From a virus (taxonomy: Duplodnaviria > Heunggongvirae > Uroviricota > Caudoviricetes), in IMG/VR virus record IMGVR_UViG_2740892117_000010, positions 1 to 21,412 of that record: 21,412 nt of DNA. One strand, written 5' to 3'. Each line of letters starts with the position of its first letter. The first letter of the stretch is position 1. The notes under the pieces are model-generated. The model was not told the DNA's origin, did no database searches, and saw nothing but the letters and a program-made list of their open reading frames with translations. Below are positions 1 to 17,860 of the stretch, in pieces. The translations under genes were made by a program, and so were the position numbers.

Positions 1-372
1 TTCACCTGCGATCCGCGACAGCACGAAAGTACAGAATGCGGTTTCCACCACTTCAGCGGAGTCTCTGGCATTCTTCAGTTCCTGTGCGTCGGCCTGCGCA
101 CGCGTAAGTCGATGGCGTTCGTACTCAATAGTCCCTGGCTGGAGATCTGCCTCGCTGGCCTGCCGCAGTTCTTCAACCTCCCGGCGCAGCTTTTCGTTCT
201 CAATTTCAGCATCCCTTTTGGCATACCATTTTATGACGGCGGCAGAGTCATAAAGCACCTCATTACCCTTGCCACCGCCTCGCAGAACGGGCATTCCCTG
301 TTCCTGCCAGTTCTGAATGGTACGGATACTCGCACCGAAAATGTCAGCCAGCTGCTTTTTGTTGACTTCCAT
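1..372 (-). CDS. nu1: Terminase small subunit Nu1, N-terminal ~124 codons (gene runs off the window start)
   Basis: Minus-strand ATG at 372; translation MEVNKKQLADIFGASIRTIQNWQEQGMPVLRGGGKGNEVLYDSAAVIKWYA... matches lambda Nu1 from memory almost residue for residue. Absent from the ORF track because it has no in-window stop. Confidence 0.92.
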   Translation of the reverse strand, partial: MEVNKKQLADIFGASIRTIQNWQEQGMPVLRGGGKGNEVLYDSAAVIKWYAKRDAEIENEKLRREVEELRQASEADLQPGTIEYERHRLTRAQADAQELKNARDSAEVVETAFCTFVLSRIAGE

Positions 373-600
373 TGTTCATTCCACGGACAAAAACAGAGAA
401 AGGAAACGACAGAGGCCCAAAAGCTCGCTTTCAGCACCTGTCGTTTCCTTTCTTTTCAGGGGGTATTTTAAATAAAAACATTAAGTTACGACGAAGAAGA
501 ACGGAAACACCTTAAACCGGAAAATTTTCATAAATAGCGAAAACCCGCGAGGTCGCCGCCCCGTAACCTGTCGGATCGCCGGAAAGGACCCGCAAAATGA
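373..600 (-). other. Lambda-type cos site: cosB between Nu1 and cosN, cosN cohesive-end sequence at 550-561, cosQ side 562-600
   Basis: Reverse complement of 550-561 is GGGCGGCGACCT, the lambda 12-nt cohesive end; flanking sequence matches remembered lambda left and right ends; spacing to the Nu1 ATG (~178 bp) is as in lambda. Confidence 0.88.
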
Positions 601-771: not shown

Positions 772-1176
772 TTACTCGAGGCCAAGTTTCTTCTTTAAAT
801 AGGCCTTCGTTAACTCCAGCCCAACATCTTTGATTGTACTCAAAGGGGCATCGCTCATTGACTTTAATTTCTCAAAAACCGTAGGTTCATTTAATGCCTG
901 GGCGAATTCTTGTCCCTGCGCAGATAGTCGCACGTCGGTACCCATATCTAGCATATGGCCACAATGGCGCATGTAGCCCAGTTTAGTTATGTCATCCGTT
1001 ATTAGATCTTTATTACTGATATAACCTTGCTCAATAAGAAGTAGATAATGAAACATCCCTTCATTCGAGCAGATATCGTACCCCGCATTAGCTAAGTCTT
1101 TTGTAGATATAAAGGGAGTTTTCGCTTTCAAAAATACCTCAAGCATCCCCTTCATGTATTCTAAATTTTTAACCAC
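772..1176 (-). CDS. Hypothetical moron protein (134 aa), no family recognised
   Basis: ORF with GTG start at 1176 preceded by AAGGAGG 5 nt upstream; AT-rich relative to neighbours; lies between lysis cassette and cos. Confidence 0.6.
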   Translation of the reverse strand: MVKNLEYMKGMLEVFLKAKTPFISTKDLANAGYDICSNEGMFHYLLLIEQGYISNKDLITDDITKLGYMRHCGHMLDMGTDVRLSAQGQEFAQALNEPTVFEKLKSMSDAPLSTIKDVGLELTKAYLKKKLGLE

Positions 1177-1311: not shown

Positions 1312-1671
1312 TTAGACATTAGATGGCGCTTTGTCAGTATAGACCCGGTACGCCCTGACAAACATCCCGTTACATTCAGAGTCCGCCTTGATATACGCCA
1401 ATTCGTAACCCCGATGCTTTAGCTCTTCACGAGCTCTTTTCTCTTCCTTAGCCATGAAGTTAAGATCTTTAATTTCTGAGTAGGTATATGTTCCCACTAT
1501 AAAATCTCTGCCTGGCCGTCCATTTATCAGTTCCATGTGTCCTCCCAAAAAGTTGGTAGTCAGAACATACCATGCTAAGCGAGGTGAAAGCACCTTTATC
1601 AAGCCCCCCGCAGATAGACTTTGTAATGGAGAGTCATTGAGTAGTTCTCGTAATTCTTTGATTTTCCGCAC
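1312..1671 (-). CDS. Hypothetical moron protein (119 aa from GTG at 1671; alternative 74-aa product from ATG at 1536)
   Basis: ORF downstream of the lysis-operon terminators; internal ATG at 1536 has a strong GGGAGGA Shine-Dalgarno, the GTG at 1671 has none, so the start is uncertain. Confidence 0.5.
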   Translation of the reverse strand: MRKIKELRELLNDSPLQSLSAGGLIKVLSPRLAWYVLTTNFLGGHMELINGRPGRDFIVGTYTYSEIKDLNFMAKEEKRAREELKHRGYELAYIKADSECNGMFVRAYRVYTDKAPSNV

Positions 1672-2059: not shown

Positions 2060-2542
2060 TCATCGAAGGCATTGCGTCCTGATGTATTCCTGAAGCGTTC
2101 TCAGTGCTGTTTGGTCGCGGATAATTCCGTCCCGGATACCGAGAACGTTTCGTCCAGCAACTGGAGAGAGTTCGACGGTGGCATCATTGCCCATGCCGGA
2201 GGCGCTGGAGGTTTCGGCTGAGGATGGCACAGGGCATTTTCCTTTGACGAACACCCGACCACCATTATCAAGCTTGCGCCGAAGAGCATCATTTTTAGCT
2301 TTCGCATCAGCTAACTCCTTCGTGTATTTAGCATCGAGTGCATCAGCAGCACGCTGGCGCTGCTGCATGTCAGTAATGGTGGCGGTCGCCTGCTTCAGCT
2401 CACTGACTTTTTTATCACGCTGTTCTTTGTAGGCGATGGCGTTATCACGGTAATGATTGACCGCCCACGACAGGCAGACGATGATGCAGATAACCAGAGC
2501 ATAAATAATCGCGGCGACTCTGCTCACTGATCTATCCCCCAA
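2060..2542 (-). CDS. Rz: Rz i-spanin (inner-membrane spanin subunit)
   Basis: Translation [39 protein letters not shown]...[15 protein letters not shown] closely matches lambda Rz from memory; overlaps the endolysin 3' end as in lambda. Confidence 0.92.
2101..2307 (-). CDS. Rz1: Rz1 o-spanin lipoprotein, embedded in the +1 frame of Rz
   Basis: Translation [21 protein letters not shown]...PPAPPAW has a lipobox (VVGC) and proline-rich core like lambda Rz1; entirely inside Rz. Confidence 0.85.
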
Positions 2543-3057
2543 CAGGCTAATGCGCTTTCCTGGTCACGACGAATAACCTGTCCATAGCAGTTATTTGAAC
2601 GTATGCGGCAATCGCGCCCACCATCTTTTATCCACCAGCGAATCGCCTCGCATGCACCTTTACGATCACCAGCATTCAGCCGCTTATAAAACGTCGACGG
2701 AAAACACTTACCGGGGCCAATGTTATAGGGACAAAATGACGCGATACCCGCTTTTTGTGGCTCGGTCAGTGGTACTTTAATATTGCGCTCCACCCATGCC
2801 AGCGCCTTATCACGCTCAATGGCGTTGACCTGGTCGCATTTTTCCTTCGACAGTTTCATACCGGGAAAAACGGGTTTTCCATCCACCATCGTGGCACCCC
2901 GACAGATGGTCCAGATGCCGGAACCATCGCGGTATGCCGTTGTGTGGTTACCTTCTTTTTCATCCAGAAACTGGTCGAGAATATCAGGCGCGGGCGCACC
3001 GACGGCAATCAGTGCCAGAACGGCAGCCGACAGGCCGTATCTGATTTTTGCGTTCAT
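2524..3057 (-). CDS. R: SAR endolysin (phage-21 R / P1 Lyz type lysozyme with N-terminal signal-anchor-release domain)
   Basis: N-terminal weakly hydrophobic Gly/Ala-rich segment ([16 protein letters not shown]) followed by a T4-lysozyme-like catalytic region; positioned between holin and Rz. Confidence 0.88.
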
Positions 3058-3120
3058 GGATATTTATCAGGATTTATCGGTTTCTGCCCACGGACAGGTT
3101 TATCTGTTCCGGTCAGTGAC

Positions 3121-3471
3121 TTAAGGTTGTGATTCCGGAGGAGTCTTCAGAGAACCAGTAATTCTTCCTGGTAGCTTTCCTTTGTAGGTTATCCAAACAT
3201 TCTGCGCATCTAAAATTACGGAGCGCTTTTCCGGCGACTGCTCGTCCCCTTCACATAACCCGGCAGCAACATCTAGGAAGACCTGTCTGATGCTCATTCT
3301 GGCTGCTGCCTCATAAAACTCCAGCGCGGCACCTTCAACACGGTCCAGCGAGATGTCCAGGTCAAAAATTTCACCGTCAAAGCGTTTTTTGTCCCGTAAC
3401 GCTAAAGTTACCGTAACTTTATTCTCAAAATTGCGGATCCCTTTCACAATCAGTTCATAGTTTTGAGTCAT
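3121..3471 (-). CDS. Hypothetical protein (116 aa) inserted between pinholin and endolysin
   Basis: ATG at 3471 with GGGGAGAG Shine-Dalgarno, starting 4 nt after the holin stop; no recognisable family. Confidence 0.6.
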   Translation of the reverse strand: MTQNYELIVKGIRNFENKVTVTLALRDKKRFDGEIFDLDISLDRVEGAALEFYEAAARMSIRQVFLDVAAGLCEGDEQSPEKRSVILDAQNVWITYKGKLPGRITGSLKTPPESQP

Positions 3472-3475
3472 TGAA

Positions 3476-3691
3476 TTACTCTCCCCGTGCAGCCTTACGC
3501 TTGTCTTCTTTAATCTTGAAATAAAGGTTTGTCAGATACGTCAGCAAGCCAAATACCAGACTACCCAGCACACCTATTGCCGCCCACTGTGAGGGCGTGA
3601 CTTTATCGAGCAACTGTAAAAACCAGTACCCGGCACTACCTGCTGAGGTGCCATAGGCGACACCCGTTGTTAACTTATCCATGGATTTCAT
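3476..3691 (-). CDS. S: Pinholin, phage-21 S type (71-aa antiholin / 68-aa holin dual start)
   Basis: Translation [71 protein letters not shown] is near-identical to S21 as remembered, including the MKSM...MDK dual-start motif. The ORF-track start at 3778 is an upstream extension. Confidence 0.9.
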
Positions 3692-3758
3692 AACCCCACC
3701 TCGCAGATGCGGGTGCTGTGTAATGGAAATAAAAAGGCCACCTGACGTGGCCACCAGA

Positions 3759-4811
3759 TTATTTCCCCACCAGCTCATTTATCTCTTTCACTGTCTGATT
3801 AAACCGCTCTGACTCAAGCTCAACACCTAAGGCCCGACGCCCCAGCGCCATTGCTGCTTTTATTGTGGAACCGGATCCCATAAAAAAATCAGCAACCAGA
3901 TCACCTGGTCGACTACTGGCATTGATTATTTGCCTGAGCATATCCGCCGGTTTCTCACACGGATGTTTCCCCGGGTAGAACTGAACGGGTTTATGCATCC
4001 AGACATCGGTATAAGGCACGGAGACTGATACGGAGAAATAGCGCCGGAGAGATTTAAACTCATCCAGCAATTCAGAATATTTACGATTCAGTGAATCATA
4101 AGATGCCACCAGCTGGTGGTGTGGTTGTTCCAGTTGTTGTTCCTGAAACTTCTCTGCCGCTATACGGGAAAACAGTGCCTGTAACTTCCGATAGTCAGCC
4201 TCATTCGGCAACTGCCACTGACTGGCACCAAACCAGTGGGAAACCATATTTTTCTTACCTGTGGCTTCGGCAATTTGTTTTGCCGTTATACCCAGTTCGG
4301 CACGAGCATCCCTGAAATACGATATCAGCGGTGCCATTATGTGCTGTTTGAGTTCCCTTTCTTTTGCTGCATAGCCGTCACTTTTGCCGCGATATGGCCC
4401 CTGGTAATGTTCAGCAAACAGAACGCGCTCTGTGGCAGGAAAATATGCGCGCAGACTTTCTTTATTACACCCATTCCAACGTCCGGACGGCTTCGCCCAG
4501 ATGATATGGTTAAGCACGTTGAAACGTTCACGCATCATGATCTCAATATCAGATGCCAGGCGATGCCCACAGAACAGGTAAAGGCTTCCGGCAGGTTTTA
4601 ACACCCGCCAGAACTGGGCCAGACAGTGGTCCAGCCACTTAAGGTAATCTTCGTCCCCTTTCCACTGATTGTCCCAGCCGTTGGGTTTCACCTTGAAGTA
4701 CGGCGGATCGGTAACAATCAGGTCAATGGAATCATCAGGCAGGGACTGAATAAAATGCAGGCAATCAGCGTTGATTAAATCAACACTGTTTATTTTTACA
4801 GTATTTTTCAT
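3759..4811 (-). CDS. DNA methyltransferase (N6-adenine/N4-cytosine class, DPPY motif), orphan
   Basis: Contains IVTDPPYF (motif IV) and a C-terminal FxGSGST-like AdoMet motif; no adjacent restriction endonuclease. Confidence 0.85.
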
Positions 4812-4961: not shown

Positions 4962-5189
4962 TTACTGGCAGCGTCTGAATTTATTCCCGTACCCGCCGTT
5001 ATCCTTCGCCAGACCCGCCAGAACTAACTGAGTCAGTATTAACTGGCACCGGGCTTCGCTTACTCCGGTAGTTCTCGTCATCATGCGTGGCGTTACCCAC
5101 TTGTCAGCAGGTAAGAAATGAAGGACTGCGGCGGCGGTTTCTGTCATATCTTGCTGTTTTAGCATGTCTTTTTCCCTTCTGGTTAACAT
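4962..5189 (-). CDS. Small hypothetical protein (75 aa; possible start at 5165), first ORF after the late terminator
   Basis: ORF with GAAGGG upstream of the second ATG; C-terminal half looks like a winged-helix segment; function unknown. Confidence 0.4.
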   Translation of the reverse strand: MLTRREKDMLKQQDMTETAAAVLHFLPADKWVTPRMMTRTTGVSEARCQLILTQLVLAGLAKDNGGYGNKFRRCQ

Positions 5190-8387: not shown

Positions 8388-8710
8388 ACTTTCAGGCCCC
8401 TCTCATGTAACCAGTGGGCTGCACGCAGCCTGGCGTTTTCCTCACCGGCAAGCAGTGCGCGGATAATCCCGACCGCCTCGCTGTCGTCGTCCTTCACAGC
8501 GGTATGAAGCGTTATCCCCCGTGCCACGCCACGCTTTATCGTGATGACGCCTTTTTTCTCCAGTGCGCGAAGATGCTCCACCGCTGCATTCACCGAACGG
8601 TATCCCAGCATGGTTGCCACCTCCTGATTGGTTGGCGGAAAGCCACGCTCTTTCTGGTAAGAAATCAGCATATCCAGCACCTGCTGCTGGCATTGAGTTA
8701 ACGTCGTCAT
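8384..8710 (-). CDS. LexA N-terminal DNA-binding-domain protein (no peptidase domain)
   Basis: LTQCQQQVLDMLISYQKERGFPPTNQEVATMLGYRSVNAAVEHLRALEKKGVI parallels the LexA N-terminal wHTH as remembered; 108 aa, lacking an S24 domain. Confidence 0.75.
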   Translation of the reverse strand: MTTLTQCQQQVLDMLISYQKERGFPPTNQEVATMLGYRSVNAAVEHLRALEKKGVITIKRGVARGITLHTAVKDDDSEAVGIIRALLAGEENARLRAAHWLHERGLKV

Positions 8711-9360
8711 GCCGCCATCTCCCTGACCAGTTTTTCCGCCTGCTGGCGAACCTGCACCAGAAAGGCTTCACCACATGCCTCAAGTTCATCGCGCCCGATG
8801 TAGCTGATTGCCGGTCCCTTCCAGGTCTTGTCGAAAACAGCAATAGCACCAGCGAAGAAAGCGCCTGTCGGCACCTGCTTCTCATCCTTCGGGATAAACC
8901 AGGCAGGCAGTTCAAAACCAATACGCCCGCGAATAAAAGCAATATGGTCCGCATCTTCCGGCCACCACACTTCGCTGGTGGCAGCTTTGATCAGGAAAAC
9001 ATAGCGCCCGCCCTTATCACGCATGGCACTGGCATGTTTCATGATGTAACGCATGCCGGTGATGTATTGTCCCTCATGCTGACTGGCGCGGCTGTATGGG
9101 GGATTACCAAAGGCAGCACCTTTAAGCTCCGCAAGACGTTCTGACCAGTCATGCGCCAGCGCGTTATCTTCCGCCGTGTAATACGCGGCACATTTGGCGT
9201 TATCACCGTCAGTAAACAGATCCAGAACAAACGGGCCAAACAGGGTGTTAATTCCCCAGAAAATGTTGTCCGGCGTGCGCCACTGATCGCCCACTTCCTT
9301 CAGTTCATGGGCTGGTTTGTTCCGCAGTTCCACCAGCGCCTGGCAATATTTATTACTCAT
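8707..9360 (-). CDS. Phage Dam-like N6-adenine DNA methyltransferase, orphan
   Basis: Contains GNPPYS motif; ATG at 9360 overlaps the upstream stop (TAATG). The ORF-track start at 9393 is a likely extension. Confidence 0.8.
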   Translation of the reverse strand: MSNKYCQALVELRNKPAHELKEVGDQWRTPDNIFWGINTLFGPFVLDLFTDGDNAKCAAYYTAEDNALAHDWSERLAELKGAAFGNPPYSRASQHEGQYITGMRYIMKHASAMRDKGGRYVFLIKAATSEVWWPEDADHIAFIRGRIGFELPAWFIPKDEKQVPTGAFFAGAIAVFDKTWKGPAISYIGRDELEACGEAFLVQVRQQAEKLVREMAA

Positions 9361-9854
9361 TAAGCCCCCACGTAATTCCCTGACAGATACCACTCTTCAC
9401 CCGATGCAGCGCGCTTGCTGCTTTTCCGTAAACACCGCTCACGACGCGCAAGAAAATTGTTTCGCTCTTGCTGGGAGTGGCTTTCACGGAATGCCGCCAT
9501 CCACACCGTTGCAGCACGACGGTATAAGCCCCTGGACTCCAGTTCTTCCGCCTGGCGGGTCAGGCATAAAATCACCCGGGGATCGTTAGTGCCGACATAG
9601 AAATTGCGCACAGATCTGGTTTCTCGAACTGGTTGTGGTTCCGGTTCCTGCGCTCTCTCAGTCAGGCGCGGAAAATGTCTGCGTGTATCTCCTTCACAAC
9701 GGTGAGCCACACGCCCACTCTGACGTAACTTGCTTGCAGACTGCAGAACGCGCTGCCGTGAGTAACCTGCAAAAGCATCCGCAATGTCTCCGGAAGTACA
9801 CCCCGGATGGGCTTCAATGAATTTCTGAACGTCATTCAAAAGACTCATGATCAC
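9360..9854 (-). CDS. PerC-like transcriptional regulator (putative)
   Basis: C-terminal GLYRRAATVWMAAF resembles the PerC-family motif; N-terminal half looks wHTH-like; start overlaps the O stop (ATGA). Confidence 0.5.
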   Translation of the reverse strand: MIMSLLNDVQKFIEAHPGCTSGDIADAFAGYSRQRVLQSASKLRQSGRVAHRCEGDTRRHFPRLTERAQEPEPQPVRETRSVRNFYVGTNDPRVILCLTRQAEELESRGLYRRAATVWMAAFRESHSQQERNNFLARRERCLRKSSKRAASGEEWYLSGNYVGA

Positions 9855-10801: not shown

Positions 10802-11140
10802 CTACTTCCCTGAATTTACGACGAAACTGTTCGAGCGGGCTGAAGCACTCATGCTCATAGCCTTCGCGGAGGTAGATAACCCGTTGTGTTTCCGGCTCCC
10901 AACGAATGACTCTGACGGGCACTCCGTAGTGATCTTTGAACCAGCGGTTAACTTGTCGCAAAGGACTGTCTCCTTCTGCCGGTTGAAATCACCCACAGCC
11001 CACTCTGCAAAGCTGTGGGTTACAATTTCCCTGTCACCTGGTACATTTACTGCATAGCAATACTCCACCTTCGCTTTTCCACCCGGTACAGGAAGTGCAA
11101 TCAGTTGCGAGCGACGGTAGTGTGTTGTTAAACTGTTCAT
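10802..11140 (-). CDS. Small hypothetical protein between the cII-position gene and O; frame uncertain in its 3' half
   Basis: ATG at 11140 overlaps the upstream stop (ATGA). The C-terminal half is Ser-rich and low-complexity, while an alternative frame over 10795-10990 reads protein-like ([52 protein letters not shown]). Confidence 0.35.
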
Positions 11141-13490: not shown

Positions 13491-13743
13491 TTGATTTTCC
13501 TTTTATGTATACGGGCTTAAAAGGATACCACCGAGCCTGAAGTGGTGAAAAGACAGGCACATAACAGCTAAGTATTTTCAACCAGAGAGAATCCTTAGCG
13601 TTGTGGTGAATGCGGCTCAGCGCACGCGGGTTAAGGTTGAGGCTGACAGTCGACCTTCTGTGGATACCCACCCGTCTGGTGTGCAACCTTCGCCAGGCAC
13701 CGGGAGGCACCCGGCACCACAACTTTATGCTGTGTGTAGTCCT

Positions 13744-13790
13744 GGCGGTACCAGTTTGTACCCTTGCTTCCGGCTGGTACCGCTCTTTTT
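13744..13790 (+). terminator. Strong intrinsic terminator (10-bp GC-rich stem + TCTTTTT) in the pL-side operon
   Basis: GGCGGTACCAG ... CTGGTACCGC followed by TCTTTTT. Confidence 0.65.
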
Positions 13791-13927
13791 ACAAAACAGA
13801 GAAGAGCATCACCGGACGACGGGCTCATAACCCAATCCATCCGGGCGGCTGCCACCGCAGGTGTTCTTCTCTGTTTTGTGGAGAAACCAACCGACCTTGC
13901 AGGGTCGATATGATGAGGAGCAGCAAA

Positions 13928-14290
13928 ATGGCTAGCGAACGCAGTACTGATGTGCAGGCATTTATCGGGGAGCTGGACGGCGGCGTATTTGAAACCAAAA
14001 TCGGCGCAGTTCTCAGTGAAGTCGCTTCCGGTGTGATGAACACGAAAACCAAAGGTAAGGTCTCGCTCAACCTGGAAATCGAACCGTTTGATGAGAACCG
14101 TGTGAAAATAAAACATAAACTCTCATATGTTCGCCCGACTAACCGCGGGAAAATTTCCGAAGAAGACACCACCGAAACACCGATGTATGTCAATCGCGGT
14201 GGTCGCCTGACTATTCTGCAGGAAGACCAGGGACAATTACTGACTCTTGCCGGTGAACCTGACGGAAAACTCCGCGCAGCAGGTCATTAA
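13928..14290 (+). CDS. yfdP: YfdP-like protein (120 aa)
   Basis: ATG at 13928 with GAGGAG Shine-Dalgarno; length and position upstream of a YfdQ-like gene match the CPS-53 yfdPQRST module as remembered. The ORF-track N-terminal extension reads as junk. Confidence 0.65.
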   Translation: MASERSTDVQAFIGELDGGVFETKIGAVLSEVASGVMNTKTKGKVSLNLEIEPFDENRVKIKHKLSYVRPTNRGKISEEDTTETPMYVNRGGRLTILQEDQGQLLTLAGEPDGKLRAAGH

Positions 14291-16679: not shown

Positions 16680-17860
16680 CCATGGCGGCAAGGCCACGTA
16701 AAAAAGAATACAGACATCTTCCTGATTATCTGGTTTTTGATAAAGATCGAGGTGTTTATAAATTCACACTTATTACCGGAAAAAAGAAAAATATAGGTAA
16801 GGATCGGGCAATAGCCGTTGCAATCGCCAGAGAGTACAACCTGAGGATGCGATCAGAATTATACCCATCAGTGGATAATCTTATTAGAGAATCTGGCGGG
16901 GTCACCGGAGAAGCAAAACCATTTGCTGAACATGTCGATCACATAATGGCCAGAATTATCGAAGACGAACGACCTTCCCAGAGTACCTTAGATGACTGGA
17001 AAAATGACGCTCTACGCGTAAAAGCATTTTTCGTAAATGTTCCGGCATGCGATATCGAACTTGAACACGTTAATGCCTACATCAACAAATATCATGCCAG
17101 CGCATCCGCAAATGTGCAGAACAGAAAGGTCAGCTTTCTTAAAAAGTTGTTCTCTTATGCGGTCGATGAATCACTAATGCAGGATAACCCGGCCATCAGA
17201 AAAAAAATGCGTAGGACTGATGAGAAGAAAAGACGGCGCCTGTCACTCGAGCATTTTATAGCTATCAGGCAGGCCGCTGCACCATGGTTAAGAACAGCAA
17301 TGGACCTAGCATTGCAGACTACACATGCACGACTCGAAGTATCGCGAATCCGTTACTCAATTCGCGAACCTAAAGACGGTTTATGTGGATGTGTTTGGTT
17401 CGAACAACCACAAAATGGCATATATGGTACACTATACATCCATAGGCAAAAAGTACAAAAAAAGGAGGCATCACATGTTGCAATACCAATTGGTGAAGAA
17501 TTGAAACGGATAATTGACAATAGCCGTGACAATGTGGCCAGTCCCTTTGTCGTTCATAGAATCCCAGAACGGCATGTTAAACGCAGTAAAGAGGTTTCGC
17601 ACCCAACTCAAGTTGCACCAGATTATTTGAGTCGGTCATTCTCTTCCGTGCGAGACAAACTCGGACTATGCAATCATCTAGCAATGGAACAAAGACCTAC
17701 ATTCCATGAAATAAGAGCTTTGGCAGCTCACCTATTTGATAAACAAGGGATTGATCCGCAGGGACGAATGGCACATAGCGATGCGAAATCTACTAAAATT
17801 TATACTAAAAATCATATAGATTGGATTGTTGTCCCTCATGGAGAAATTAAAACCGGTTAG
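16676..17860 (+). CDS. int: Tyrosine integrase, lambda Int family
   Basis: N-terminal arm-binding-like region; C-terminal catalytic region parallels lambda Int (PTFHEIRALAAHLF vs PTFHELRSLSARLY, then H...Y). Confidence 0.9.
   Translation: MTMAARPRKKEYRHLPDYLVFDKDRGVYKFTLITGKKKNIGKDRAIAVAIAREYNLRMRSELYPSVDNLIRESGGVTGEAKPFAEHVDHIMARIIEDERPSQSTLDDWKNDALRVKAFFVNVPACDIELEHVNAYINKYHASASANVQNRKVSFLKKLFSYAVDESLMQDNPAIRKKMRRTDEKKRRRLSLEHFIAIRQAAAPWLRTAMDLALQTTHARLEVSRIRYSIREPKDGLCGCVWFEQPQNGIYGTLYIHRQKVQKKEASHVAIPIGEELKRIIDNSRDNVASPFVVHRIPERHVKRSKEVSHPTQVAPDYLSRSFSSVRDKLGLCNHLAMEQRPTFHEIRALAAHLFDKQGIDPQGRMAHSDAKSTKIYTKNHIDWIVVPHGEIKTG

Follow-up and report, generated by a model that had tools for sequence, protein, structure and literature searches.

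The 116-amino acid gene lying between the pinholin and endolysin genes of the DNA stretch analysed here (21,412 nucleotides of the IMG/VR record IMGVR_UViG_2740892117_000010, referred to as the window) has been identified as a member of the YdfR family (PF07041, DUF1327). Both this identification and the status of ydfR as an optional accessory late gene are nearly certain. The whole explanation favoured in this work, in which an optional late gene of the YdfR family encodes a two-module soluble protein whose N-terminal domain would bind RNase E or RNA, is judged to be just on the likely side of even.

An earlier note, made from the sequence of this DNA, had presented the gene as unassigned. 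This was wrong, because the protein belongs to the PF07041/YdfR family, is annotated in RefSeq and has a copy at the same position in the Qin prophage of Escherichia coli K-12. Pfam, RefSeq and the K-12 annotation already cover this gene together with its family and location, and ydfR is a known family in this respect. Since the cassette in which the gene sits governs lysis and also the release of toxin in Stx phages, a defined function for its product would be useful.

The ydfR gene and its neighbours in the window

The features of the lysis region are listed in Table 1. The ORF described in the earlier note between the pinholin and the endolysin is real, and it is located on the minus strand, which had not been stated. 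The minus-strand junction reads GCA CGG GGA GAG TAA ttca ATG ACT CAA AAC, and the ydfR ATG is found 4 nt (3475..3472) past the holin stop codon TAA (3478..3476), exactly as had been said. The good Shine-Dalgarno sequence claimed for the gene is also present, with GGGGAGAG ending 7 nt before the ATG. A small correction was required for the gap between the ydfR stop and the lysozyme ATG (3057), which is 63 nt (3120..3058) instead of 64 nt.

Table 1. Features of the lysis region. Positions are those of the window, and the strand is that on which each feature is read.
Feature	Position	Strand	Description
ydfR-family coding sequence	3121..3471	minus	ATG at 3471, TAA at 3123..3121; 116 aa; from the ORF list and PF07041
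N-terminal conserved domain, residues 1-73	3253..3471	minus	Predicted three beta-strands and long helix; acidic, pI 4.8; motif R44-x-EGA-x-LEFYE-A
C-terminal module, residues 78-112	3136..3240	minus	PEKRSVILDAQNVWITYKGKLPGRITGSLKTPP; mildly basic, pI 8.4; low-confidence prediction
Shine-Dalgarno of ydfR	3479..3486	minus	GGGGAGAG; built from the last holin codons (R-G-E)
ydfR-lysozyme spacer	3058..3120	minus	63 nt, A/U-rich
S21-type pinholin	3476..3691	minus	71 aa; PF04971 'P21 holin S', E=4e-35; phrog_9876 and phrog_20, both holin
GH24 lysozyme, RrrQ / Stx-phage R type	2524..3057	minus	177 aa; PF00959; phrog_7 endolysin
Rz spanin	2060..2527	minus	PF03245; phrog_13; RefSeq 'lysis protein' maps to 2527..2060
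Rz1 lipoprotein ORF embedded in Rz	2101..2307	minus	68 aa; lipobox-like LIMVVGC
Terminator-like hairpin and T-run	3736..3752	minus	GGCCACGTCAGGTGGCC TTTTTATTTC; part of the Q-dependent late unit, located past the stop of the methyltransferase gene and ahead of the holin start

The 25 nt upstream of the lysozyme ATG (AACCGATAAATCCTGATAAATATCC) contain no Shine-Dalgarno sequence, and the final 24 nt or so of the spacer are conserved in phage H-19B. A regulatory RNA or structured element in this spacer was considered and rejected, since folding of the spacer was not significant (z-score -0.58) and no Rfam match was obtained anywhere in the window. Promoter-like and terminator-like sites were not found on the minus strand from the holin start to the Rz end. 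For this reason the co-transcription of ydfR with the lysis genes, as put forward in the earlier note, is plausible, and ydfR would plausibly belong to the Q-dependent late/lysis transcription unit.

The start of the holin, as read from the sequence, is the dual-start motif MKSM at 3691/3682 (M1/M4), and the 100-aa holin ORF given in the ORF list extends this frame upstream into the gene for the methyltransferase. The lysozyme has a SAR-like N-terminus, rich in Gly/Ala and weakly hydrophobic, with its hydrophobic maximum at residues 9-27, and direct reading of its sequence shows the E-8aa-D-5aa-T motif. Its assignment to the phage 21 type had to be corrected, because it shares about 34% identity with R21/RrrD and its lineage is that of RrrQ / Stx-phage R instead. 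A DNA methyltransferase (PF01555), a small ORF of phrog_331 and the Q antiterminator (PF03589) are encoded upstream of the holin. The rest of the window is a lambdoid prophage early region that includes RusA, KilA-N, DUF968, Dam, a CI-type repressor and an integrase, together with a replication-type HTH protein and a CII-like protein.

Family, domain architecture and optional occurrence of ydfR

The 116-aa protein matched PF07041 with a score of 140.2 bits (E=2.6e-41, Pfam cut-off 25 bits), its residues 1-112 being aligned with positions 1-92 of the 93-position profile. All the family-invariant alignment columns are present in it, including the Y5-E6...V9 and R-x-EG-x-x-L-E-F-Y-E-A motifs. It also matched phrog_406 and phrog_2091, both of unknown function. 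A 100% identical gene with the same neighbours occurs in E. coli CCUG 73778, where it is annotated in RefSeq as 'YdfR family protein' (WP_000193265.1). The founding member of the family is ydfR (b1555) of E. coli K-12, one of the genes of the cryptic prophage Qin, where the order is essQ-ydfR-rrrQ-rzpQ/rzoQ. A holin followed after 4 nt by ydfR and then by the lysozyme is seen in K-12 Qin, vB_EcoS-640R1, the Stx2-converting phage 86 and YYZ-2008, and in the 1998 record of H-19B the gene is present but unannotated in the 400-nt gap between S and R.

A blastn analysis of 5426 complete E. coli genomes located ydfR at 8617 places in 4349 genomes, the window lysozyme type at 11,113 places in 4429 genomes and the S21-type holin at 16,913 places in 5166 genomes. 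With some 8600 places in 4349 of the 5426 genomes, ydfR is among the commonest unexplained E. coli prophage genes. The comparison with related cassettes that the earlier note had proposed therefore found the gene to be routine in them (4349/5426 genomes), although no established role came with it. Beyond Escherichia/Shigella, a one-genome-per-species collection yielded only two MAG contigs with ydfR, both contamination-like. Matches labelled as Veillonella, a Bacillota MAG and Enterococcus were rejected as signs of a wider range and treated as contaminating E. coli prophage DNA.

The selection acting on ydfR was analysed by the Nei-Gojobori method, comparing the window copy with 58 different nucleotide sequences of the gene taken from the retrieved loci. 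In divergent comparisons dN/dS was about 0.2-0.35 for the gene, with values of 0.22-0.34 at dS 0.4-1.8 for the N-terminal domain and of 0.2-0.8 for the C-terminal module. The frame is open in 75 of the 76 IMG/VR loci that carry the window lysozyme type, the remaining copy being 5'-truncated. The 140-bit Pfam match, the open frame in 75/76 loci and the low dN/dS place this ORF far beyond chance, and ydfR is a genuine coding gene under purifying selection. YdfR is probably translated, with a cytoplasmic location.

An AlphaFold2 prediction with a deepened alignment (model m044a634fc797) revealed antiparallel strands at residues 5-14, 18-27 and 34-43 followed by a helix at residues 50-73, with pLDDT values of 84-93, and three short strands with pLDDT of about 55 in the C-terminal part. 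Residues Y5, E6, V9, V21, G47, L50, Y53, E54, A57, A69 and L72 are invariant or nearly so in the N-terminal domain of about 72 residues. This domain is followed by a second module, PEKR..ILEAQ.VWITYKGKLPGRITGSLKTPP, and then by highly variable tails. Family members have lengths of 103, 104, 114, 116, 129, 154, 174, 176, 183, 206 and 268 aa. The C-terminal module is missing or replaced in the 103/104-aa forms, is extended in the 176/183/268-aa forms and is found without the N-terminal domain in proteins P0153 and P0131, and tandem-domain proteins (P0186 and P0191) also exist. The highest 19-residue Kyte-Doolittle mean is 1.03 in YdfR, compared to 1.72 in the holin and 1.87 in the SAR region of the lysozyme, and neither a membrane segment nor a signal peptide-like N-terminus was found in the window protein. 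YdfR is composed of a conserved domain, predicted to be beta-beta-beta-alpha, and an exchangeable tail, and it would be a soluble, cytoplasmic protein.

A remote-homology profile search of 1.84 billion representative proteins produced 87 matches, all of them DUF1327 proteins or fragments. No matches were obtained with the window protein in NCBIfam, in PADLOC or in a PDB sequence search, and Foldseek comparison of the YdfR model with PDB and BFVD gave no match at E<=0.001. Prophages of Pantoea, Cronobacter and Sodalis encode stand-alone homologues of 72-76 aa. Their match is restricted to positions 1-72, and the N-terminal domain is the only part that they have in common with the window YdfR. 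The genomic context was examined for three of these homologues, all located in prophage late operons. The Pantoea gene lies between Q and a cassette with a class-3 holin, a GH19 lysin and Rz, the Cronobacter gene immediately downstream of Rz and ahead of the terminase region, and the Sodalis ligni gene next to the tail gene L. Because these homologues sit elsewhere in late operons, the conserved unit is the 72-residue domain, which goes with late expression and not with any one holin or endolysin. A convergent gene of about 100 aa (phrog_25324) adjoins the homologues of Pantoea and Cronobacter. This gene was rejected as a conserved partner, as no counterpart was found in the window or in any of the fetched E. 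coli loci.

The optional occurrence of ydfR was established from IMG/VR loci carrying a holin at least 99% identical to that of the window, 73 of which were evaluable. The gene is absent in 64 of them, where the holin stop overlaps (TAATG) the start of an R21/RrrD-type lysozyme, and present in the other nine, where the window-type lysozyme follows. The lysozymes of the 64 loci lacking ydfR are essentially identical to two solved chains, 3hde (phage 21 R) and 4zpu (named Lysozyme RrrD). The direct holin-lysozyme junction in 64/73 loci agrees with the statement in the earlier note that S21 and R21 are adjacent in phage 21, and these same-holin loci without ydfR confirm that, compared with the phage 21 arrangement, ydfR has been inserted.

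When the lysozyme was taken as the reference, ydfR was present in all 76 evaluable IMG/VR loci with a window-type lysozyme at least 95% identical, and the order holin-ydfR-lysozyme was kept in 75 of them. Across loci, 333 to 1259 nt separate the ydfR start from the lysozyme start, in keeping with the varying length of the ydfR tail. In VT2-Sakai an 82% identical S21-type holin is joined to a 91.5% identical lysozyme in the absence of ydfR. The junction there is the same (GGGGAGAG-TAA-4-nt-ATG), and the Shine-Dalgarno sequence embedded in the holin gene serves the lysozyme. The Salmonella phage SPN3UB also has this lysozyme without ydfR.

In the phage collection, 101 records contain ydfR, whereas a lysozyme at least 80% identical to that of the window occurs in about 357. 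Among the records named as Stx-converting phages, ydfR and the lysozyme of this type were found, respectively, in 41 and 46 Stx1a records, in 15 and 15 Stx2c records and in 2 and 124 Stx2a records, and the split between presence and absence of ydfR follows phage lineage. In the sampled loci ydfR never accompanied an R21-type lysozyme and always accompanied RrrQ-type lysozymes at least 95% identical, which raised the idea that it is specific to the pair formed by the S21 holin and the RrrQ-type lysozyme. This idea was rejected, as VT2-Sakai has the pair without ydfR and the record numbers differ (101 vs about 357). Judging from these loci, the lysis cassette functions in nature both with and without ydfR. 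The alternative of the earlier note, a cargo gene expressed at lysis, fits an optional accessory gene located in the late/lysis unit and provided with a strong ribosome-binding site.

Candidate functions of YdfR

The only experimental lead on function comes from the K-12 protein. In a bacterial two-hybrid screen for which RNase G served as the bait, a fragment comprising residues 1-72 of K-12 YdfR was isolated three times (Göpel et al., RNA Biol 2026, PMC13232886). Both this fragment and the full-length protein interact with residues 1-597 of RNase E, FLAG-tagged Rne 1-598 co-elutes with Strep-YdfR, and DNase-resistant nucleic acid co-purifies with K-12 YdfR, whose overexpression caused no growth arrest and changed few transcripts (PMC13232886). 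Over residues 1-74, the window protein shares 80% identity and 95% similarity with K-12 YdfR, and the RNase E-interacting fragment 1-72 coincides exactly with the domain conserved across genera.

In the explanation favoured here, ydfR would be an optional accessory gene that many lambdoid prophages of Escherichia carry in the slot following an S21-type holin. It would be transcribed as one of the late/lysis genes, and its translation would start from the Shine-Dalgarno sequence within the holin gene. Its product would stand outside the holin, endolysin and spanin machinery. By homology to K-12, the most likely partner of the N-terminal domain is the N-terminal, catalytic half of the host RNase E, with RNA as a possible further one. 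On this view YdfR would affect the decay or processing of RNA at a late stage of the lytic cycle and would not act on the envelope. As a mechanism, a soluble late YdfR that binds the catalytic half of RNase E and/or RNA and acts on RNA metabolism is possible yet doubtful. For the window copy, binding to RNase E or RNA and any consequence for the phage would follow by analogy with the K-12 protein.

Several observations weigh against the RNase E model. It derives from a single paper on the K-12 orthologue under overexpression, in which RNA could bridge the interaction and few transcripts responded to the overexpressed protein. The tail of the window protein is unrelated to the K-12 tail after residue 74, an acidic domain is an odd RNA binder, and the CPRG-positive phenotype of the Keio ydfR deletion could indicate a lysis-related role instead. 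A more specific version is distinctly unlikely. In it, YdfR bound to the RNase E catalytic half and/or to late mRNA would control the processing or stability of lysis and morphogenesis transcripts, for example at the A/U-rich spacer, thus coupling RNA decay to endolysin dosage, lysis and toxin release. If this version were true, the skew among Stx phages (ydfR in 41 Stx1a and 15 Stx2c records vs only 2 Stx2a records) would be phenotypically meaningful. A temperate phage that targets RNase E late would, if shown, represent a new type of host takeover in lambdoid phage biology.

An unlikely alternative to the RNase E reading is that YdfR tunes the timing or strength of lysis, either directly on the pinholin or SAR endolysin or indirectly, by taking the ribosome-binding site embedded in the holin gene and lowering endolysin dosage. 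The position of ydfR and its tight 4-nt coupling to the holin favour this role, as does the fact that cassettes without ydfR place the lysozyme in that slot with the same Shine-Dalgarno sequence, while here the lysozyme is preceded by AACCGATAAATCCTGATAAATATCC, without one. Since ydfR takes this site, its insertion may lower endolysin translation whatever the protein does. The constant presence of ydfR in the sample of lysozymes at least 95% identical points in the same direction. The direct form requires access to membrane or periplasmic control steps, which a protein without transmembrane or signal sequence would not have. Known antiholins and lysis inhibitors (lambda S107, S21-71, T4 RI, P1 LydB) have a membrane or periplasmic location that was not found for YdfR, nor is its co-occurrence with the holin obligatory, with 64 of 73 same-holin loci and VT2-Sakai lacking it, and the window holin retains its own dual-start antiholin motif. 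VT2-Sakai pairs the same holin and lysozyme types without ydfR, and the distant homologues are found beside unrelated holin/endolysin types or among tail genes. The lysis-timing modulator of the earlier note thus received no positive support, given the lack of a membrane segment, the VT2-Sakai cassette and the location of distant homologues outside the junction. The Keio ydfR mutant was scored as an envelope-defect strain in a CPRG screen (Paradis-Bleau et al.), a result that speaks for lysis or leakage, although it may be a polar effect of the kan promoter driving rrrQ. In MG1655 treated with enrofloxacin both cassettes are induced and only the ydfR-less DLP12 cassette adds to peptidoglycan damage and vesicles (PMC12287860). 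This contrast between Qin, with ydfR, and the damaging DLP12 cassette would favour a lysis modulator, but the comparison is confounded by many other differences.

A gene of benefit to the lysogen (moron), expressed from its own promoter in stationary phase or cold stress, for example, and helping the host and not the phage, is about as improbable as the late-mRNA version described above. In its favour, the ydfR probe (c1434) was preferred by the sigma-S holoenzyme in vitro with a ratio of 3.45 (PMC3141248), expression-database evidence of cold-stress induction of the Qin cluster has been cited by Göpel et al. (PMC13232886), and a ydfR overexpression clone showed a 3-fold increase in streptomycin MIC (PMC12924614). 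The gene has also been kept in the cryptic prophage Qin, and in Pantoea and Cronobacter the domain travels with the convergent partner gene in a mobile cassette-like manner. However, none of the features of a classical moron (own promoter, terminator, atypical composition) was found for ydfR: an upstream promoter-like site on the minus strand and flanking terminators were not detected, and its GC content (0.462) is close to that of the surroundings (0.470). Almost no ydfR reads are obtained in growing K-12 (PMC13232886), and a ribosome-binding site inside the holin gene implies expression from the late polycistronic mRNA. A counter-defence or exclusion factor, whose domain would hold a host or rival-phage target while the shuffled tails reflect an arms race, is very unlikely. 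The extreme tail mosaicism (103-268-aa forms on one N-terminal domain), the tandem-domain versions P0186 and P0191 and the small, acidic nature of YdfR, like that of many phage inhibitor proteins, are compatible with it. Nevertheless, no match to known defence or counter-defence proteins was obtained with PADLOC, nor with Foldseek at E<=0.001 in PDB and BFVD, late expression is unusual for anti-defence genes, and the dN/dS values indicate purifying and not diversifying selection. That ydfR is a functionless remnant, retained only for its place between the 3' end of the holin gene and the 5' end of the lysozyme gene as conserved recombination anchors, is highly improbable. The gene is optional, its tail region is a recombination hot spot, and the databases hold frameshifted, truncated and holin-fused versions, but dN/dS stays at about 0.25-0.35 for dS values as high as 1.8, 75/76 loci keep an open frame, and homologues with 25-35% identity persist in other genera as intact 72-aa ORFs.

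Comparison with known systems

One close known counterpart is K-12 YdfR (b1555, P76160), which shares with the window gene the Pfam family and the slot, starting 4 nt past an S21-type holin and being followed by an RrrQ-type lysozyme and Rz/Rz1. The K-12 protein has 103 aa and an unrelated tail after residue 74 or so, whereas the window form has 116 aa and the PEKR...GSLKTPP module. The K-12 ydfR stop overlaps the rrrQ start (ATGA), unlike the window gene with its 63-nt spacer. Among Stx1a/Stx2c-converting and other lambdoid phages, YYZ-2008 gp44, Stx2-86 gp05, the H-19B ORF and the mEp460 protein occupy the same slot of the lysis cassette and have the two-module core, with N-terminal domains 53-61% identical to that of the window. 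Stx2-86 gp05 represents the long form, with 268 aa, and an additional gene on the reverse strand comes after it.

The phage 21 / DLP12 cassette (S21-R21-Rz-Rz1) resembles that of the window in its holin family, the dual-start motif and the S-R-Rz/Rz1 logic. It differs in that no gene is located between S and R, the holin stop overlaps the R start and the lysozyme is about 34% identical to the window enzyme. The genes ant, between R and Rz, and bor, after Rz, are likewise optional accessory genes in or near the lysis cassettes of Stx and related phages. Their proteins are unrelated to YdfR, and bor is on the opposite strand, whereas ydfR is translationally placed like a member of the cassette.

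Phage proteins that act on RNase E include T4 Srd, phiKZ Dip (gp37) and T7 gp0.7, and T4 Srd has been reported to contact the N-terminal catalytic half of the enzyme. If the K-12 result transfers to the window protein, YdfR would join them as a small phage protein binding RNase E of the host.

Occurrence of ydfR in Stx phages and in database records

The junction between the holin (S) and lysozyme (R) genes differs systematically among the Stx1a, Stx2c and Stx2a toxin-phage groups. In the phage collection records, ydfR is strongly skewed towards Stx1a-converting (41) and Stx2c-converting (15) phages, with only 2 occurrences in Stx2a-converting phages, and the lysozyme of the type present in the window is found in 46, 15 and 124 records of the Stx1a, Stx2c and Stx2a types, respectively. 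Phage lineage is probably the source of the ydfR skew. The 1998 record of phage H-19B (AF034975.3) carries no annotation in its S-R interval of 400 nt, within which an intact ydfR-family ORF of 114 aa (MKKKYELVVKGINNYPDK...) is located at positions 2106-2450.

Seven database proteins (P0025, P0034, P0042, P0084, P0090, P0111 and P0118) have been found in which the holin domain (PF04971) is fused to the YdfR domain (PF07041). The junction ...KAARESNSMTQ... of one example is the product expected from a 1-nt deletion in GAGTAATTCAATG, and such fusions may have arisen from errors in sequencing or may be natural variants produced by read-through, in which YdfR is tethered to the membrane. Another two proteins of 170-176 aa (P0186 and P0191) each include two tandem DUF1327-like domains. 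E. coli-type ydfR or prophage sequences were also recorded under unrelated Gram-positive or Negativicutes taxa, namely in metagenome-assembled genomes of Veillonella parvula (L090) and of a Bacillota member (L092), and in a protein labelled Enterococcus faecalis (P0068); binning or assembly contamination is the most likely origin of these three taxon labels. In the discussion of a paper on K-12 YdfR (Göpel et al., RNA Biol 2026, PMC13232886), the identity of the Qin genes as holin, lysozyme and spanin of the Qin lysis cassette is left unmentioned.

A convergent partner gene in Pantoea and Cronobacter

Prophages of Pantoea and Cronobacter carry a stand-alone DUF1327 gene of 72 aa followed by a convergent gene of about 100 aa with unknown function. 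The partner genes of both genera are 60% identical and the pair is located differently in each prophage. The two genes may constitute a module. Neither the window nor any of the E. coli loci has a counterpart of the partner gene.

Other genes of the window and the holin start

Two DNA methyltransferases are encoded by the window prophage, in which no cognate restriction gene was seen for either of them. The window ORFs 112-471 (+), 772-1176 (-), 1312-1671 (-), 4962-5189 (-) and 13610-14290 (+) showed no Pfam match or matched only PHROGs of unknown function; the PHROGs concerned are phrog_585, phrog_6100 and phrog_331.

Features located in the window and in the Pantoea and Cronobacter loci (L174, L178)
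Feature	Positions	Strand	Remarks
N6_N4_Mtase	3759-4811	(-)	PF01555; best PADLOC match, Type II MTase (E=3e-152)
Dam-type methyltransferase	8707-9393	(-)	PF05869; early region
Holin, mechanical ORF	3476-3778	(-)	100 aa; overlaps methyltransferase 3' end
Terminator-like hairpin and T-run	3736-3752	(-)	Between methyltransferase stop and holin start
Convergent partner gene, L174	4240-4545	(-)	phrog_25324
Convergent partner gene, L178	1469-1765	(-)	phrog_25324

The conserved start of the window holin is an MKSM dual start (3691/3682), which gives products of 71/68 aa; the annotation of VT2-Sakai S, with 96 aa, is also too long. The terminator-like hairpin sits within the presumed Q-antiterminated late transcript.

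Comparison of the lysis cassettes

The N6_N4_Mtase gene, placed between Q and the holin gene, occupies the slot of stx in Stx phages. In ydfR-less cassettes such as that of VT2-Sakai, the lysozyme gene starts 4 nt past the holin stop and its Shine-Dalgarno is the holin-embedded GGGGAGAG, whereas in the window the slot behind this same motif (3479-3486) is occupied by ydfR, and the A/U-rich stretch preceding the lysozyme ATG (3058-3120) lacks a Shine-Dalgarno. The stop codon of ydfR and the start codon of rrrQ overlap in K-12 Qin (ATGA). Because these three junctions differ, the endolysin translation signals vary among the cassette variants.
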